Shown piece after piece: positions 29,801-36,822 of a stretch of 38,765 bases of DNA. Positions within the stretch are counted from its first letter, which is position 1, and every line of letters starts with the position of its first letter. The stretch spans positions 1 to 38,765 of the forward strand of contig JBGZAX010000010.1 of assembly GCA_041844335.1 (NCBI GenBank), read 5' to 3'. This DNA is from Lachnospiraceae bacterium. Its GTDB lineage: Bacteria > Bacillota > Clostridia > Lachnospirales > Lachnospiraceae. Below the pieces are notes generated by a model. The model did no database searches and was not told the origin of the DNA. It saw only the letters and a list, made by a program, of their open reading frames with translations. The position numbers and the translations under genes were made by a program.

Positions 29801-31009
29801 TCAGTTTATTATCTTGCCTTCTCTTAACTTAGCCAGATCATCTTTGGAGTATCCGACTCTTGTTAATATTTCTTCCGTATGCTCGCCCAGCAACGGAGAC
29901 AGAACATATTCATCTCTTTCTCTTGTAGGGAACTGTACGGGGTTCGTAAACATTGTCCTTTCGTTGCCGTTTCTGTACTTGATTTTAATCAAGAAATCAT
30001 TTGCCCAGCATTGCTCGTCATTTAAGATGTCAACAGGCGTCTGCAACTTCTCGAACGGTATTCCCGCCTTCTGAAGTCTTTCACACCACTCGTCAATAGG
30101 TTTTTTAGCAAATTCTTTTTCCATCATATCAACGAATTCCGGGATGTATTGAACAACACTCTTCATTGTGCTGTATTTGGAGTCCTTAAGATCAGGACGT
30201 TCAATTACGATATCGCAGAATCCCGGGAACCACTTGTCATACTGGAAGAATGCTATTTGCAGCCAGTTGCCGTCAGCGCACTTGTATGTTGTGTTTAACG
30301 GATTTGGAGGGTTCTTTCTGGTTATAGGCATATTGTATCCGTACTGAGCCGCATTTACATATAGACCCAATCCGAATACTGCTGTATGGAACAGTGATAC
30401 TGTAACCTTTTCTCCCTCACCTGTCTTATCTCTGTTGTATAAAGCCGCTAAAATTCCGGAAACAAGGTTCATTCCTGCATAATGATCGCCTAATGCCGCT
30501 GCCGAGTTACAAGGAGATGTGCCTTCTTCCATAAGGCTTGCCGCTACACCGCCACGCGCAAAGTATGCTGTGTAGTCAAACGCCGGATTGTCCTTTGCCG
30601 GTCCCTTTTCACCGTATCCCAAAAGGTGAGCATAAACAACCTTAGGTACTCTCTTATGAACACTTTCATAATCAAGTCCGCTCTTTACTAGAGCCTTCTC
30701 ACGAGTGTTGGTAATAAAAATATCAGCGTCCTCTAACAACTTGAAGATGATTTCAACACCCTCTTTAGTTCTAGTATCAACCACTATACCTTTCTTTCCG
30801 GAGTTTTCCATTTCAAATAACGGACACTCGTCTGATCCTGTAGGGAATTTCCACTGTAAGCCCACCATGCGGGTAGTATCACCCTCCGCCGGTTCAATCT
30901 TAATAACCTCGGCGCCCCAGTCTGCAAGAACTCTGCCGCTTATAGGTGCAGCAACAAAGTTAGCGTACTCCACTACCTTAAGGCCTTCTAATAACTTGCG
31001 TTTTTCCAT
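29801..31009 (-). CDS. Family III CoA-transferase (HadA/FldA-like 2-hydroxyacid CoA-transferase)
   Basis: LKVVEYANFVAAPISGRVLADWGAEVIKIE N-terminus, 402 aa. First gene of the dehydratase operon, as in the C. difficile hadAIBC and C. sporogenes fldAIBC clusters. Confidence 0.85.
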   Translation of the reverse strand: MEKRKLLEGLKVVEYANFVAAPISGRVLADWGAEVIKIEPAEGDTTRMVGLQWKFPTGSDECPLFEMENSGKKGIVVDTRTKEGVEIIFKLLEDADIFITNTREKALVKSGLDYESVHKRVPKVVYAHLLGYGEKGPAKDNPAFDYTAYFARGGVAASLMEEGTSPCNSAAALGDHYAGMNLVSGILAALYNRDKTGEGEKVTVSLFHTAVFGLGLYVNAAQYGYNMPITRKNPPNPLNTTYKCADGNWLQIAFFQYDKWFPGFCDIVIERPDLKDSKYSTMKSVVQYIPEFVDMMEKEFAKKPIDEWCERLQKAGIPFEKLQTPVDILNDEQCWANDFLIKIKYRNGNERTMFTNPVQFPTRERDEYVLSPLLGEHTEEILTRVGYSKDDLAKLREGKIIN

Positions 31010-31081
31010 TTCTTACCTCCTAATTTAGATTCTCTTTTTATATTCGCTATCTATATTCACACAAACAGCTTAGCAATTTCA

Positions 31082-31110
31082 TTATAAACCAACGACATTA
31101 AATTGTCAAT
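31082..31110 (-). promoter_or_regulatory. Consensus sigma-70 promoter of the dehydratase operon
   Basis: The minus strand reads TTGACA, exactly 17 nt, TATAAT. It lies ~70 nt upstream of the ATG at 31009. Confidence 0.6.
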
Positions 31111-31291
31111 ATTTTATGCAAAATAACTAATGCTTTGTATTTAATTATATACCTTAAAAGCAATTATAACTATCCGTTTTTCTATATTTATAATATTTTT
31201 TCTGCATATTATGGTACTTTTTACAATTTTAAATATTTTTTATTTTTGAAGAAATTCTTCTCAATTATTTTTTGCCGTTATGTCTTTAGGC

Positions 31292-31894
31292 TCAATCTAA
31301 TTTCCTATAACTGTCTTTCTTTTTATAATCCTTATTCATATTTATTACAGTAATATTTTCAAATACCACCTGATCCAAGTTTTCGGAACCGTCAAATTCG
31401 AAATCATCGAAGCCGCAGTTTATAAATTTTACATTATCAAATTTACATTCTAAAAATGTACATTCTATAAATTTAATATTTTCAAACACGACATTGCTGA
31501 AAACAGATTCATCAAAATAGCCTCTGAAAATCTCGGAATTGGAAATTTTCGTATCATAAAAGGCGGAATAACAGTACTCGGTTCTGAATGAATCTATATT
31601 CTCAATATTGGTAGATTTAAAAGTTGTATATTCACATTTTCCCTTTCTAAAGGTATTGTTCTTAAATATACAGTTATTAAATTCGCTTCCGTCTAAGCCT
31701 GCTAAGCTTAAATATACATCCGTAAAATCGCAATCGTTGAATATGACGTCATAAAATTCAGCACCGTTTAAATCATAGCCCGTAAATATAATATTGTCCA
31801 GCGTAACATCCTCATATAACAGCTTAAAAGACGGTTCTATTCCTCCAAGCACACTATCCGTATGTTTCTGCAGATCTTTATATATATCATCCAT
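31292..31894 (-). CDS. Pentapeptide-repeat protein (candidate immunity protein, copy B)
   Basis: About 28 consecutive pentads with Phe/Leu/Ile at the central position (DVIFN DCDFT DVYLS LAGLD GSEFN NCIFK ...). Strong RBS AGAGGAGG. No signal peptide. Confidence 0.8.
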   Translation of the reverse strand: MDDIYKDLQKHTDSVLGGIEPSFKLLYEDVTLDNIIFTGYDLNGAEFYDVIFNDCDFTDVYLSLAGLDGSEFNNCIFKNNTFRKGKCEYTTFKSTNIENIDSFRTEYCYSAFYDTKISNSEIFRGYFDESVFSNVVFENIKFIECTFLECKFDNVKFINCGFDDFEFDGSENLDQVVFENITVINMNKDYKKKDSYRKLD

Positions 31895-31922
31895 TTATTT
31901 TAACCTCCTCTATATTTTATTG

Positions 31923-32759
31923 TCATATAATTATCCTATCATCCATAAGGTTAAGCTTTTTAAGCTCCTTTATAAGCTCATCTGCATCCTTATCGGTCAT
32001 ATAGGTTTTATCAATTATGACGTTTTCTCCCTTATTCAATGTTCTTTTTATGCTTTTAACGGCATTTTCAAGGGTATACCCTCTCTTCCTTTTAACACTT
32101 GAATTAAATGATTTATTATCTTCGCTTTGCTCCTGCTTCGACAAATTAACGTCAATAGGTTCTTGAGTTTGACTGTCTTCCAATTTCCTATAACTTTTCT
32201 CCATATTTATAATATTTACATTCTCAAACACCACCTTATCCAAGCCCTCGGAATTGCCGAATCTAAATTTGTCAAAACTGCAATTTATAAACTTCACATT
32301 GTCAAACTTACAATCTTCAAACGATAATTCAATAAATTTAACATTTTCAAACACAACATTGCTGAAAATACCTTCATCAAAATAGCCTCTAAAAATCTTG
32401 GAATTGGAAATTTTTGTATCATAGAATTCAGAACGCCAATATTCAGTTTTGAATGAATCCAATCTGTCAATAGTAGTCGATCTGAAAATTGCAGAATCGC
32501 ACTCACCCTTTCTAAAGATATTGTTCTTAAATATACAGTTATTAAATTTGCTTCCATTTAAACAGGCTAAGCTTAAATAGACGTCAGTAAAGTCGCAATC
32601 GTTGAATATAACGTCATAAAATTCAGCGCCGTTTAAATCATAGCCAGTAAATACAATATTGTCCAGCGTAACACCCACATATAACAGCTTAAAAGACGTT
32701 TTTATTCTTCCAAATGTCTTATCAGTGTATTTTTGCAGATCTTTATATATATCATTCAT
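31923..32759 (-). CDS. Pentapeptide-repeat protein (candidate immunity protein, copy A) fused to a copy of the upstream toxin's C-terminal ~50 residues
   Basis: Residues 1-193 are a close match to the 200-aa neighbour. Residues 227-278 (GYTLENAVKSIKRTLNKGENVIIDKTYMTDKDADELIKELKKLNLMDDRIII) align with the last 52 residues of the 32782..34860 protein. Confidence 0.8.
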   Translation of the reverse strand: MNDIYKDLQKYTDKTFGRIKTSFKLLYVGVTLDNIVFTGYDLNGAEFYDVIFNDCDFTDVYLSLACLNGSKFNNCIFKNNIFRKGECDSAIFRSTTIDRLDSFKTEYWRSEFYDTKISNSKIFRGYFDEGIFSNVVFENVKFIELSFEDCKFDNVKFINCSFDKFRFGNSEGLDKVVFENVNIINMEKSYRKLEDSQTQEPIDVNLSKQEQSEDNKSFNSSVKRKRGYTLENAVKSIKRTLNKGENVIIDKTYMTDKDADELIKELKKLNLMDDRIII

Positions 32760-32781
32760 TTATTTTAACCTCCGCTATATT

Positions 32782-34860
32782 TTACGGCCATACAATTATC
32801 CTATCCATAAGGTTAAGCCTTTTAAGCTCCCCTATAAGCTCCTCCGCATGCTCCGGTATCAAATATGTGGTATCAAGTATAATATTCTCTCCGTTCATCA
32901 ACGATTTATTTATGTTGCGCATAGATTTCTGAAGGTTATACTTCCCATCTGGTCCTGGAGGGTTTGAACGAAATGATTTCACATCCCAGGACTTCCCGTT
33001 CGCATCCATAAAATCTCCGTCCCCTGATAAATCACGAGTGATAGGACCTTTAATTTTCCCGCTTTCTTCCACTTTTAAACCTACCTCACGCTCATAATTG
33101 CCCTTATAAATATCAGAATCTCGTTTAGATTTATTATGTGAGGGATCTTTAGCCAATTCATCCAGCTCCTCTCGAGTTCTTCCACCGGTATAGTTACCGT
33201 CGGAGTCATACAGATTCTTGTTACGTGAATTCGGGGTAGCTTTATTGCCCTTTTTCACATCTCTCAGCGTATCGCCAGATTTTGCCCTGTCGGTAGTCTT
33301 TCTTATGTCTCCGATACTATCCGATATCCCGCTTTTTTTAGCTTTTTTAATAGATTTTTTAGCAGTATTTTCTATCATATCATCGGCATTTTTTATGCCG
33401 ATTTCTCCGACGTTCGTCAATACCTTGGGTATTTTTTTAGGTAAAACCAGATTATCTAATGATTTGATTCCCCTTTTTATCAGCTTCGCGGCAGGCTTTG
33501 CCAAATCTGCCGCTTTATCCGCATATTTTACCACGCCTGCCACAGGCAACACACCTAATGCGGTTATAGCTACTTTAGCGACATGCTGTCGGCTATTCTT
33601 CCAATTGGTAATACCGTGCACCAGATCTCTTACATCCGCCGGCAGATCTATACCGAAAATACCCGTCGCAATCTGGGAAGCCGATCCGAGGGCGGTTTGG
33701 TTCTCAGTATAATCTCCCGCTATCAGGTTATCAAGGCTTCTTTCAATATAATTCGCTTCGCCGCTGTTTAAATATTTTCTGTAACTCTTATCAAAAATAA
33801 TTCTGGCTATTCTTTCCTCTGTGGACATAGCGGAATATTGCAGCTTTCCGTAAAGCTTATTCACTTTTTCCTTTTTCTCAGACACTTTCAGATTTTTATT
33901 GTCATTTTTTCCGGCATCGGTCTTTTTTAAACCTGGTCCGTTTTTCTTAAATTCCGTTTTCCTATCCTTATATTTTACATCCTGAGTTTTGTAGCGTTTA
34001 GCCCTATTCTCCGATTTAGTAACCGCCTTCTTTTTTGAAACTGACTTGTTTTTTTGAACCGAGCTTTCTGTATTTGAACTCCTATCTTTTAAATTATAAG
34101 TTTGGTTGGACTGAGACTGCACATCTGTATTCACGACAGGAGCATAGGTATAATTACCCTTACCCGTTTGAATGATTTTTCCGCGATTTTTCAGATAGCT
34201 GTCCAAATTTCTTAAAGAATTTGTATTATAATTTTTGTTTAAATTTATAACTGTCTTGTCCGAAGCCTTATCAGTCTGACTATAACCTATAGTCACTCTA
34301 TCATAAGCTGCTGACGTGTTATCAGCTGTCCTATCCCTGACAATATCGGTCGACTTTTCGCTTACAGCCGTCCTATCCCTGACAGTATCGGTCGGTTTTC
34401 TGTTCACAGCTTTTCTGTCATAACTCTCATCATTATGCCTTGTAGTTTCAGCCGCCCTGTCCGGAACCTTATTTGTCAGCCTTGAGCTGACATAAGTATC
34501 CCTATTCGGAGCCTTACCCTCAGTCCTTGATGATGCACTGTTTTTTACAGTATCATCTCTCTTGACATACTTGTCGACATTCGGCTTGCGTACGGGATTC
34601 GGTTTGTGTACTGGTTTCTTTTTTATATTTTCCGTTTTAGTTTTGGTCACGGGTTTTATGCTCTTAGAAACGTTTTTACCCGGTGACACATTTTTGCCGC
34701 TCGTACTGCTCTTAGACGTGCTTGATGCTCCGCTTTTCGATGACGAACCGCTCTTCGATGATGAAACACTTCTTGATGAACTGCTTCTTGACGGGCTGCT
34801 GCTCGTACTTCTATAAGAACGAGTGCCCCCTCCGCTTGATCTTGATATTCTTCTCGCCAT
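32782..34860 (-). CDS. Polymorphic-toxin-like protein: disordered Ser/Lys-rich N-terminus, PT-TG-like core, C-terminal PD-(D/E)xK-like putative nuclease domain
   Basis: Start set at the ATG at 34860 (MARRISRSS) with a GGAGGG RBS. No signal peptide, LXG, RHS or cell-wall anchor seen. The C-terminus reads GGRTREELDELAKDPSH...YEREVGLKVEESGKIKGPITRDLSGDGDFMDANGKSWDVKS. The functional call is inferred from motifs and context only. Confidence 0.6.
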   Translation of the reverse strand: MARRISRSSGGGTRSYRSTSSSPSRSSSSRSVSSSKSGSSSKSGASSTSKSSTSGKNVSPGKNVSKSIKPVTKTKTENIKKKPVHKPNPVRKPNVDKYVKRDDTVKNSASSRTEGKAPNRDTYVSSRLTNKVPDRAAETTRHNDESYDRKAVNRKPTDTVRDRTAVSEKSTDIVRDRTADNTSAAYDRVTIGYSQTDKASDKTVINLNKNYNTNSLRNLDSYLKNRGKIIQTGKGNYTYAPVVNTDVQSQSNQTYNLKDRSSNTESSVQKNKSVSKKKAVTKSENRAKRYKTQDVKYKDRKTEFKKNGPGLKKTDAGKNDNKNLKVSEKKEKVNKLYGKLQYSAMSTEERIARIIFDKSYRKYLNSGEANYIERSLDNLIAGDYTENQTALGSASQIATGIFGIDLPADVRDLVHGITNWKNSRQHVAKVAITALGVLPVAGVVKYADKAADLAKPAAKLIKRGIKSLDNLVLPKKIPKVLTNVGEIGIKNADDMIENTAKKSIKKAKKSGISDSIGDIRKTTDRAKSGDTLRDVKKGNKATPNSRNKNLYDSDGNYTGGRTREELDELAKDPSHNKSKRDSDIYKGNYEREVGLKVEESGKIKGPITRDLSGDGDFMDANGKSWDVKSFRSNPPGPDGKYNLQKSMRNINKSLMNGENIILDTTYLIPEHAEELIGELKRLNLMDRIIVWP

Positions 34861-34929
34861 TTCTACCCTCCAAAATGATAAACAAAACAACAGGTTAGAT
34901 TCGTTAAAAATATATCTATCTTTCGTTAA

Positions 34930-34958
34930 AATATATATTTATTTCGTTTGATTGTCAA
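34930..34958 (-). promoter_or_regulatory. Possible promoter of the toxin-like gene
   Basis: The minus strand reads TTGACA, 17 nt, TATATT. It is followed by two direct repeats of TTCGTTAAAA(A)TATAT (plus-strand reading) before the RBS. Confidence 0.35.
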
Positions 34959-35079: not shown

Positions 35080-36822
35080 TTATAAAATATCCGACAGCTT
35101 AAAGGAGTTATGCTCCGTGTGCAGCAAAATATGCGCCTTGTGTGATGCCGGCTCTTCAAAAAAGCTGTCGTACAGATTCTTTATATCAGGGTTCTCGTGA
35201 GAGCATCTGATCTCCAGGCTTTCATCCAATGCATAGAGCATCCTGCCTCTGTCAAATGCCATCTCCAAGCCGTCATGAATCACCTGTCCTCCGCCACCCA
35301 CACAGCCGCCGGGACAAGCCATAACCTCCACGAAATCGAAATGCTCCTTTCCGCTTTCAATAGCCTTCATAAGTTTTCTTGTATTTCCTAAACCGCTCAC
35401 AACGGCTATCTTTACCGTTTCACTGTTAAGCACAAAATTCGCTCTTACAATACCGTCATTACCGTCTGTCTCTCTTACAGCCTCAAATGCGTTTGGCGGA
35501 GGGTTTTTGCCCATAATCTTAAAATATGCGGTGCGAAGAGCAGCCTCCATTACACCGCCCGTGACTCCGAAAATCACTCCGGCTCCCGAATAATCATGGA
35601 AAAGCCTGTCAGGCTCTATATCCCTTAAAATGCTCGGCTTAATATGAGAGGCTCTTACAAGCCTTACAAATTCTCTTGTCGTTATTACACAATCAGTTTC
35701 GTGACCCGCATATTCCTTATAATAAAGATCCATTTCCTCCTCGGATTTTTTTGCAATACAGGGCATTATCGCCACCGTATATATATCCTCGGGTTTCTTC
35801 CCTATGCTTTCTGCAAAATAGGTTTTAATCACTGCCCCGAACATCTGCATAGGAGATTTTGCAGTGGACAGTCTTCCGGTCAAATGCGGATACTGTGTTT
35901 TCATAAATCTCACCCAAGCAGGACAGCAGGATGTAAACATCGGCATATATTTAAGCTCCCCTGATGTATACCTCCGAATGAACTCGTGCGCCTCCTCCAT
36001 TATCGTTAAATCTGCGGAAAATGAGGTATCAAACACATAATCGGCTCCCATTTTCTTTAAAGCGTCAAAAACCTTTCCTATAGTGGACTCCTCCTTACTG
36101 AGCCCAAGCCCCTCTGCGTAAGAGGTTCTGACGGCGGGAGCGACCTGCACGACCACAGTTTTATTCTTATCCGCTATCGCTCTGAAAAAGCTTTCAGTAT
36201 CGTCCCTTTCCTTTAACGCACCCACAGGACAATGAGTAATACATTGACCGCATAAAGAACAGTCGGCATCCTTTATTAACCTGTTTTTCGACACATTAAC
36301 AGTGGTTCTTGCACCCGTTCCCTCAAGCGCCCACACATTTAAATCCTGAATCTTATCACAGATTTGTATACATCTGATACACTTTATACATTTTTTAGAG
36401 TCACGAATCAGCGGAAAATTTTTATCCCAAGCTCTGTTTTCCAGTCTTTCAAAATAGGGTATCTCCTGAATATTAAGATCATTTGCCAACTTTTGCAATG
36501 AGCAGCTTCCACTTCTTACACAGGTGGCACATCTGCAATCATGCATAGATAAAATCATCTGCACCGTCCTTTTTCTGTCGAGACGAACCTTGGGAGAATC
36601 GGTGTAAATCACCATTCCCTCCTCCACCTCATTATTGCACGAAGTGATAAGCCTGTTTTTTCCCTCCATCTCAACCACGCAGACCCTACATGCCGCAATC
36701 TCGTTTATATTCTTAAGAAAACACAGCCTGGGAATGGGCAGCCCGACATCTAATGCCGCCTCCATTATGCTTGTGCCCTCTTTAACCGTAACATCAATAT
36801 TATCAATAGTTAAATTTACCAT
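35080..36822 (-). CDS. hydA: [FeFe] hydrogenase catalytic subunit, CpI-like M3 architecture
   Basis: N-terminal 2Fe-2S fold, His-ligated cluster motif (HDCRCATCVRSGSC), and two 4Fe-4S motifs (CIKCIRCIQIC, CSLCGQCITHCP). H-cluster signatures FTSCCPAW, IMPCIAKK and EVMACPGGCVGGGGQ. Confidence 0.93.
   Translation of the reverse strand: MVNLTIDNIDVTVKEGTSIMEAALDVGLPIPRLCFLKNINEIAACRVCVVEMEGKNRLITSCNNEVEEGMVIYTDSPKVRLDRKRTVQMILSMHDCRCATCVRSGSCSLQKLANDLNIQEIPYFERLENRAWDKNFPLIRDSKKCIKCIRCIQICDKIQDLNVWALEGTGARTTVNVSKNRLIKDADCSLCGQCITHCPVGALKERDDTESFFRAIADKNKTVVVQVAPAVRTSYAEGLGLSKEESTIGKVFDALKKMGADYVFDTSFSADLTIMEEAHEFIRRYTSGELKYMPMFTSCCPAWVRFMKTQYPHLTGRLSTAKSPMQMFGAVIKTYFAESIGKKPEDIYTVAIMPCIAKKSEEEMDLYYKEYAGHETDCVITTREFVRLVRASHIKPSILRDIEPDRLFHDYSGAGVIFGVTGGVMEAALRTAYFKIMGKNPPPNAFEAVRETDGNDGIVRANFVLNSETVKIAVVSGLGNTRKLMKAIESGKEHFDFVEVMACPGGCVGGGGQVIHDGLEMAFDRGRMLYALDESLEIRCSHENPDIKNLYDSFFEEPASHKAHILLHTEHNSFKLSDIL

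Follow-up and report, generated by a model that had tools for sequence, protein, structure and literature searches.

The window analysed here, a stretch of 38,765 nucleotides (nt) from a Lachnospiraceae bacterium (GenBank assembly GCA_041844335.1, contig JBGZAX010000010.1, positions 1 to 38,765), encodes on its minus strand three co-oriented genes in the order toxin, PRP-A and PRP-B, the last two coding for pentapeptide-repeat proteins (PRPs). The analysis points to a polymorphic-toxin locus in which PRP-A would be the cognate immunity protein, most likely binding the C-terminal domain of the upstream toxin and occluding its acidic site, and we consider this reading probable. The kind of locus is known; what sets this one apart is that an uncatalogued toxin domain is paired with a putative immunity protein of the pentapeptide-repeat type. 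The three genes are the following:

32782..34860, minus strand: toxin gene, with a likely ATG start at 34860 (692 amino acids); the mechanical open reading frame (ORF) from TTG 34890 encodes 702 amino acids.
31923..32759, minus strand: PRP-A gene, an ORF of 278 amino acids that begins 22 nt past the toxin stop codon.
31292..31894, minus strand: PRP-B gene, a stand-alone ORF of 200 amino acids that begins 28 nt past the PRP-A stop codon; putative immunity gene of an orphan cassette.

Judging from sequence comparison, the PRPs are very probably the cognate immunity proteins of the upstream toxin, because a polymorphic-toxin module lies upstream of them, because a repeat protein is adjacent to this toxin domain at nearly all loci and because the two partners diverge together; the immunity role put forward in a preliminary description of this DNA is upheld on these three grounds. 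Indeed, when one genome per species was scanned, the toxin domain was found to be encoded at 56 loci, all of them in Bacillota (the scanned carriers include Paenibacillus, Brevibacillus, Lysinibacillus, Bacillus, Priestia, Clostridium, Butyrivibrio, Ruminococcus and Lachnospiraceae). In 54 of the 55 loci that have a downstream ORF, this ORF matches a partner hidden Markov model built solely from PRP-A and PRP-B. These partners are about 200 amino acids long and, relative to the toxin stop codon, most start somewhere between 16 nt before it and 17 nt after it. A repeat-protein partner is also encoded at L001, L002, L003 and L009, loci that were fetched via individual proteins. In brief, (i) in Anaerocolumna (L001) the toxin/repeat pair adjoins the type VII secretion system (T7SS) genes essC and WXG100, (ii) in Brevibacillus (L002) the repeat protein stands behind a DUF4280/VgrG-like toxin carrier, and (iii) a WXG100-fused toxin likewise has a repeat-protein partner. 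The repeat protein tracks the toxin domain and not the delivery region, which argues for immunity rather than for an export adaptor. Pairwise identities of the toxin domains and of the adjacent repeat proteins are correlated (r=0.95, a value that 0 of 2000 Mantel permutations reached); the repeat proteins diverge faster, with a mean identity of 39% vs 58% for the toxin domains, and their pairwise identity ranges from 11 to 99%, in step with the toxin. Toxin-PRP adjacency is, in short, near-universal and accompanied by co-divergence.

At two of these loci further toxin/immunity genes follow the pair, namely Toxin-deaminase with SUKH in the Brevibacillus locus (L002, 7769-9030) and SitI3 and CdiI_3 in L003 (7417-8747), and these loci therefore appear to be multi-cassette islands.

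The protein encoded upstream of the PRPs can be divided into the following regions (residue numbers are those of the 702-residue ORF, with the TTG start at 34890):

33856..34860, minus strand: basic low-complexity N-terminal third, Ser/Lys/Thr-rich, with a net charge of +47 over residues 1-350.
33237..33750, minus strand: pre-toxin linker, residues ~381-551, with the motif GIFGIDLPADVRDLVHGITNW; common to VgrG/gpD-type carriers of the same domain.
32785..33234, minus strand: C-terminal toxin domain, residues 553-702 (150 amino acids), with E600, E608, R619, D629 and D636-V-K638 (DVK codons 32977-32985).

The C-terminal domain appears to be a polymorphic-toxin-type module, and is thus presumed to be toxic, because it lies at the extreme C-terminus behind diverse N-termini in proteins of a wide size range. 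Indeed, a profile of the domain matched 887 representative clusters at E<=1e-3, a count that falls to 478 at E<=1e-10; among the matches listed, the domain reaches the C-terminal end, or nearly so, in proteins of 124 to 1872 amino acids, and the N-termini of the homologues are variable, including WXG100 and Phage_GPD/VgrG-like ones. Residues 381-702 of the toxin share 36% identity (E 5e-51) with residues 630-948 of a protein (P0017) whose N-terminus is Phage_GPD/VgrG-like. The toxin domain matched no Pfam, NCBIfam or PADLOC family, and a Pfam scan of 11 members of the toxin family returned no match. A large toxin-domain family that has no Pfam annotation is defined here. In the low-complexity part of the protein, a 42-nt tandem repeat (34323-34410; 2.1 copies, 85% matches) encodes ...TD(T/I)VRDRTA....

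Conservation within the domain was assessed on 150 toxin-domain representatives, each at most 50% identical (numbering of alignment A1, to which 552 is added to obtain that of the 702-residue ORF). No variation is seen at E48, E56, D84, K86 and S90; R67 is conserved at 99% and D77 at 93%, being otherwise E. The AlphaFold2 (AF2) model of the domain (predicted local distance difference test, pLDDT, 88; predicted TM-score, pTM, 0.82) has the topology alpha-beta-beta-beta-alpha-beta(-alpha-beta), the predicted elements being a helix at 39-58, short strands near 66 and 75, a strand at 82-87, a helix at 101-113 and a strand at 117-121. In this model both conserved Glu residues are on helix alpha1, D77 ends strand beta2 and D84-V-K86 is on strand beta3. 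The domain thus combines the E...D...(D/E)xK order and the predicted alpha-beta-beta-beta-alpha-beta core that characterize PD-(D/E)xK enzymes, and on the basis of motif and predicted topology it is probably a metal-dependent nuclease of this type.

The features of the two repeat proteins are located as follows:

32178..32759, minus strand: PRP-A repeat domain, residues 1-194, with a cap helix at residues 4-15, the pentads at 32253-32672 and Lys84 at 32508-32510.
31388-31807, minus strand: pentads of PRP-B, with Lys84 at 31643-31645; the protein has a net charge of -18 and a pI of 4.3.

Both PRPs pass the Pfam cut-offs of Pentapeptide_4 (PF13599; 59.7 and 59.3 bits, E 3e-16 and 3.9e-16, cut-off 38) and of Pentapeptide (PF00805; 38.4 and 43.9 bits, cut-off 20.2). 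In each protein, 28 consecutive pentads in a single register span residues 30-169; their centre is hydrophobic, being F in 18 of the 28 and L, I, C, S or Y in the remainder, and with 4 faces to a coil they make up 7 coils. AF2 models PRP-A as a beta-helix capped by an N-terminal helix (pLDDT 94-99 at residues 20-185), and a Foldseek search with this model against the PDB gave 55 matches at E<1e-3, all with pentapeptide repeats. The closest neighbours are the stand-alone repeat proteins MfpA, QnrB1, AlbG and Np275/276 (the last, 2j8k, with TMt 0.86 and a root-mean-square deviation of 2.0). Beyond the last coil, the PRP-A model shows no long helix, and PRP-B stops 16 residues beyond the cap. These results agree with the ~28-30 uninterrupted Phe-centred pentads, the ~7 coils and the quadrilateral beta-helix of the preliminary description. 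Its statement that the proteins consist almost entirely of pentads holds for the uninterrupted run and fails for the extent, the repeats making up 140 of 200 residues in PRP-B (70%) and 140 of 278 in PRP-A (50%); moreover, PRP-A had been taken as repeat throughout, and its last ~84 residues are best read as a remnant of the toxin C-terminus (see below).

Several variations were observed among homologous repeat proteins. A C-terminal extension (...IDGE.K..LGNEIK..) is conserved in many close homologues (e.g. L010, L013, L014 and P0002), both copies in the window being without it, and remoter repeat proteins of Paenibacillus and Bacillus end in another motif (...SINIGT.E.P..L..EEA..W). A Lachnospiraceae locus (L012, 2276-3034) encodes a longer partner of 252 amino acids with a net charge of -19 and internally duplicated coils; coil number is therefore variable within this putative immunity family.

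PRP-A and PRP-B are 74% identical at the protein level. Their DNA identity is 87.6% over nt 1-250 and 76.0% over nt 250-558, close to the ~85-90% over the first ~250 nt, with lower values later, that had been estimated before. The dN/dS ratio between the repeat domains is 0.21: both copies are under purifying selection and positive selection between them is ruled out at the whole-gene level, and the diversifying specificity suggested in the preliminary description is not supported by it. Mapping of the differences onto the helix, which had been proposed together with the dN/dS analysis, showed that none fall on central pentad residues, that outward positions are favoured (13 of 28 at i-1) and that the differences cluster on one helix face (14 of 35). 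The net charge is -18 for PRP-B and -3.5 for the PRP-A repeat domain; the family of adjacent repeat proteins is acidic, with a median net charge of -10 and a range of -19 to -1. Across 55 distinct repeat proteins, Lys84, at the corner of coil 3, is the sole strongly conserved surface residue (98%), and nearly all other conserved columns are core positions.

In the proposed mechanism, PRP-A would bind the C-terminal domain of the toxin directly and would cover its conserved acidic active site, the contact being made via outward-facing residues of the beta-helix; Lys84 would be the prime candidate for a contact with the invariant acidic site of the toxin. Direct cognate binding of the toxin domain is favoured on comparative grounds: two models had been considered in the preliminary description, one in which a DNA mimic plugs the toxin and one in which it shields a cellular topoisomerase, and the toxin-binding one is preferred here since PRP divergence tracks the toxin. 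Nucleic-acid mimicry by the acidic repeat proteins is plausible, their charge being compatible with it rather than a proof of it. A broader proposal, according to which the whole ~200-residue PRP subfamily would consist of dedicated nucleic-acid-mimic inhibitors of the Bacillota nuclease-type toxins of at least 887 clusters, with the acidic beta-helix filling the substrate groove and Lys84 entering the metal site, is tentative and in our opinion doubtful; if it were true, protein-toxin immunity would be a general and previously unrecognised function of pentapeptide-repeat proteins.

The C-terminal part of PRP-A and the region ahead of PRP-B record a rearrangement, which involves the following segments:

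32172..32914, minus strand: duplication unit 1, comprising the last ~45 toxin codons, an intergenic ribosome-binding site (RBS) and the PRP-A repeat domain.
31310..32052, minus strand: duplication unit 2, comprising a toxin 3' remnant, an intergenic RBS and PRP-B.
31923..32177, minus strand: in-frame PRP-A tail, residues 195-278 and the stop codon, consisting of a linker followed by what remains of the last alpha-beta-alpha-beta of the toxin domain.

When aligned over 748 nt, positions 32914-32172 and 32052-31310 are 79.8% identical, and the leader GGAGG-TTAAAATAA-ATG is identical in front of PRP-A and PRP-B. PRP-B terminates in ...SYRKLD followed by a stop codon; PRP-A reads ...SYRKLEDSQTQ and runs on for 84 residues. 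This tail matches positions 79-147 of the toxin-domain profile, is 41-49% identical to the tail of the toxin encoded here and keeps traces of the catalytic strand (EPIDVN...DNKSF, vs GDFMDAN...DVKSF in this toxin and AEFIDAN in most homologues). In the PRP-A model the linker (190-226) is disordered (pLDDT <50) and the tail is folded as alpha-beta-alpha-beta (pLDDT 85-93), the folded part being equivalent to the four secondary-structure elements with which the toxin domain ends. The dN/dS ratio between the PRP-A tail and the toxin tail is 0.69, i.e. almost neutral, and the repeat domains are constrained at 0.21. As judged from these alignments, PRP-A is an immunity protein fused in frame to a decaying 3' toxin fragment. 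The array can be read as toxin, immunity A and then a cassette of toxin 3' remnant and immunity B, because the two units align and because the PRP-A tail is toxin-derived, and PRP-B belongs to an orphan cassette, since a tandem duplication of ~860 bp put a toxin remnant ahead of it. An old tandem duplication or recombination of this size generated the second cassette (toxin remnant and PRP-B), and the same event appears also to have deleted the PRP-A stop codon and joined the decaying toxin remnant to PRP-A. Orphan cassettes made of a 3' toxin remnant and a repeat protein recur at other loci (L018, L051, L057, L058, L060 and L062), and one locus (L022) has two complete pairs, whose toxin domains are 65% and repeat proteins 48% identical. 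The fusion of an immunity protein with a toxin remnant and the orphan cassette constitute a record of how such loci rearrange.

The toxin gene probably starts at ATG 34860, since GGAGGG is found 6 nt upstream and since the syntenic homologue P0006 begins with MARRISRSS. Upstream of this start, one promoter-like site was identified:

34930..34958, minus strand: TTGACA-17-TATATT, upstream of the toxin gene, 11/12 consensus positions, a consensus match only.

The leader of the toxin gene also contains an AT-rich 21-nt direct repeat (34900-34948; 2.3 copies, unit TTCGTTAAAAATATATATATAT). The TTCGTTAAAAATATATATATAT repeat overlaps the -10 hexamer of the promoter-like site and may be an operator candidate; no regulator gene is found nearby. 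The three genes are flanked by a [FeFe]-hydrogenase gene (36822..35080) on one side and by a CoA-transferase/2-hydroxyacyl-CoA dehydratase operon (31009 downward) on the other. Upstream of this operon, which starts at 31009, a further site on the minus strand (31081-31109, TTGACA-17-TATAAT) matches the sigma-70 consensus at 12/12 positions.

The G+C content of the toxin/immunity segment (31000-33000) is 28-33% vs ~40-45% in the flanks. The toxin domain was found in none of 40 related genomes, and an uncultured relative (L009) has the same order of hydrogenase, toxin and repeat protein. The segment has the traits of an island that was acquired and then stably kept in a narrow lineage, because of its low G+C content, its absence from the 40 related genomes and the use of the same post-hydrogenase site in L009. 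The source assembly (1.18 Mb in 86 contigs, 87% complete) encodes no further toxin of this kind and no repeat protein of this kind besides PRP-A and PRP-B. Two congeneric genomes measure 1.1-1.5 Mb, against 1.6-5.7 Mb (mostly 2-5 Mb) for the other genomes of the family; the organism looks like a member of a Clostridia lineage with reduced genomes in which a toxin/immunity island has nonetheless been retained.

Several points weigh against the interpretation of the locus as a toxin with its cognate immunity proteins, or against parts of it. Co-divergence could alternatively result from genetic linkage or a shared cassette history and not from co-evolution of an interface. As regards the nuclease assignment, a Foldseek search with the model of the toxin domain gave no significant match (best E 0.18 in the PDB and 0.08 in BFVD, with PvuII and Eco15I among the non-significant matches only), sequence and profile searches of the PDB with this domain were empty, and Pfam returned no match for it. 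The PRP-A repeat domain is weakly acidic (-3.5), which weakens a simple picture of charge mimicry. Furthermore, the toxin protein has no signal peptide and no LXG/WXG, Rhs, PAAR or VgrG part, and no WXG100, EssB/YukC or Phage_GPD/VgrG homologue was found in the source genome, which is 87% complete; because neither a trafficking domain nor a secretion homologue was found, an interbacterial role is not established at this locus. The same two absences, the latter of which includes gpD, together with the low-GC island (28-33% vs ~40-45%) and its absence from 40 related genomes, would suit an intracellular module, i.e. a resident toxin-antitoxin, addiction or abortive-infection-like cassette with the PRPs as direct antitoxins, or a decaying relic. 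We regard such a module as unlikely: the genome is 87% complete only, the syntenic relative (L009/P0006) has the same long N-terminal region in its toxin, the pre-toxin region is common to VgrG-type carriers, which points to delivery, and PADLOC gave no match. The Hailong anti-phage effector HalA was also considered as a candidate and rejected, the score being 57.7 bits vs a cut-off of 250 over the repeat region only, with no PADLOC match.

Under the topoisomerase-shielding model of the preliminary description, the PRPs would be DNA mimics that bind gyrase or topoisomerase IV and shield it from the toxin, as Qnr, MfpA, AlbG and McbG do with their targets. The fold is common to gyrase-protecting repeat proteins, AlbG and McbG provide self-immunity in producers of gyrase poisons, and the repeat family is mostly acidic. 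The scores, however, are far from those of the known protectors (Qnr, 27.8 bits vs a cut-off of 240; MfpA, 26.9 vs 360, both NCBIfam), and those of the Qnr subfamilies are also far below. PRP identity varies from 11 to 99% and tracks the toxin, whereas conservation would be expected of a presumed cellular target; a single conserved target would make it redundant to keep several diverged copies at one locus; the long C-terminal helix that in MfpA and Qnr mediates a tail-to-tail dimer, a mimic of about 30 bp of DNA, is not seen in the PRP-A model; and the toxin domain is not known to resemble any gyrase poison. This model is accordingly disfavoured and appears very improbable. A role of the PRPs as export helpers, i.e. 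as chaperones or adaptors that load or export the toxin in the manner of the pentapeptide-repeat/DUF2169 accessory proteins of type VI secretion systems (T6SS), seems hardly probable at all. T6SS clusters with pentapeptide-repeat accessory proteins have been reported (Kim et al. 2021), and some carriers of the toxin domain are VgrG-like; but adaptors follow the delivery domain, and the PRP accompanies the toxin domain whatever the N-terminal delivery region, of which at least three unrelated kinds occur, is kept beside toxin remnants that cannot be exported and is encoded where immunity genes canonically lie, in many cases with an overlap of the toxin stop codon. Recognition of the toxin by a cognate immunity protein thus remains the preferred reading of the locus.

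Pentapeptide-repeat proteins are very numerous and, to our knowledge, have a known function in a handful of cases, mostly gyrase protection. The locus offers a concrete and easily testable function for one PRP subfamily, namely protein-toxin immunity. If the beta-helix fills the substrate site of a nuclease, the DNA-mimic idea would extend from topoisomerases to secreted nucleases, and a simple repeat scaffold would have toxin specificity that evolves through its outward-facing residues.

Compared with known systems, the locus resembles the polymorphic toxin systems such as CdiA-CT/CdiI, Rhs-CT/RhsI and the T7SS LXG systems (Zhang et al. 2012, PMC3482391) in its C-terminal toxic domain behind variable delivery regions, its immunity gene directly downstream, its orphan cassettes behind the main pair and its patchy, island-like distribution. 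It differs from them in that none of the Tox or Ntox families of Pfam is matched by its toxin domain, in that its proposed immunity protein is a pentapeptide-repeat beta-helix and in that no delivery domain is recognisable at this locus; the word 'pentapeptide' is absent from the accessible portion of the text of that catalogue (Zhang et al. 2012, PMC3482391). A comparable description concerns Tse6-Tsi6a of Stenotrophomonas rhizophila and DYE20_11250/11255 of a Mycobacterium chelonae T7SS, in which the toxin, of unknown fold and tentatively a nuclease, is carried by different secretion systems and has a cognate antitoxin annotated as pentapeptide-repeat; the pair occurs in Proteobacteria, Actinomycetes and Planctomycetes and the domain is reported to be rare (bioRxiv 10.64898/2026.07.13.738213). 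Likened by description, both are polymorphic toxins, putative nucleases, with a pentapeptide-repeat partner; the pairs studied here, unlike those of the Tse6-Tsi6a lineages, are from Bacillota. YjbI-like pentapeptide-repeat genes are also conserved beside GH-E (His-Me finger) Rhs toxins, where the repeat protein was not read as immunity and no immunity gene was identifiable (Jablonska et al. 2017, PMC5714182). These loci share with the present one a pentapeptide-repeat gene conserved beside a nuclease-type toxin, and differ from it in the fold of GH-E, which is HNH. ToxB/iToxB (bioRxiv 10.64898/2026.05.05.722872) was considered as a precedent and set aside, as the paper never uses 'pentapeptide' and gives no sign that iToxB is a PRP. 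Within the limits of the literature searched, neither this toxin family nor its association with a PRP was found described in any paper.

Among the PD-(D/E)xK toxins of contact-dependent growth inhibition (CDI) systems are CdiA-CT of Burkholderia pseudomallei 1026b and E479, which are tRNases, and EC869 o11, a DNase. The toxin domain described here is like them in the E...D...(D/E)xK order, in the alpha-beta-beta-beta-alpha-beta core (predicted here) and in its C-terminal use as a toxin, and unlike them in that no significant sequence or structure match to a solved member was found; their immunity proteins, unlike the one proposed here, are not known to be pentapeptide-repeat proteins. A specific likeness to CdiA-CT E479 (PDB 5J4A) was not retained, as this entry is absent from the 50 Foldseek PDB matches listed. 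As for the repeat proteins, AlbG, McbG, Qnr and MfpA act on gyrase and guard it against small-molecule or peptide poisons, AlbG and McbG being the self-immunity proteins of the albicidin and microcin B17 producers. The PRPs share with these four proteins an acidic right-handed quadrilateral beta-helix of ~7-8 coils; they differ from Qnr and MfpA in scoring far under the cut-offs of these families, and no C-terminal dimerisation helix is seen in the PRP-A model. Their partner, unlike the poisons countered by AlbG, McbG, Qnr and MfpA, is a protein toxin domain, with evidence for toxin-specific pairing, and the feature that they would have in common with AlbG and McbG in particular is the protection of a toxin producer from its own toxin, as proposed here.

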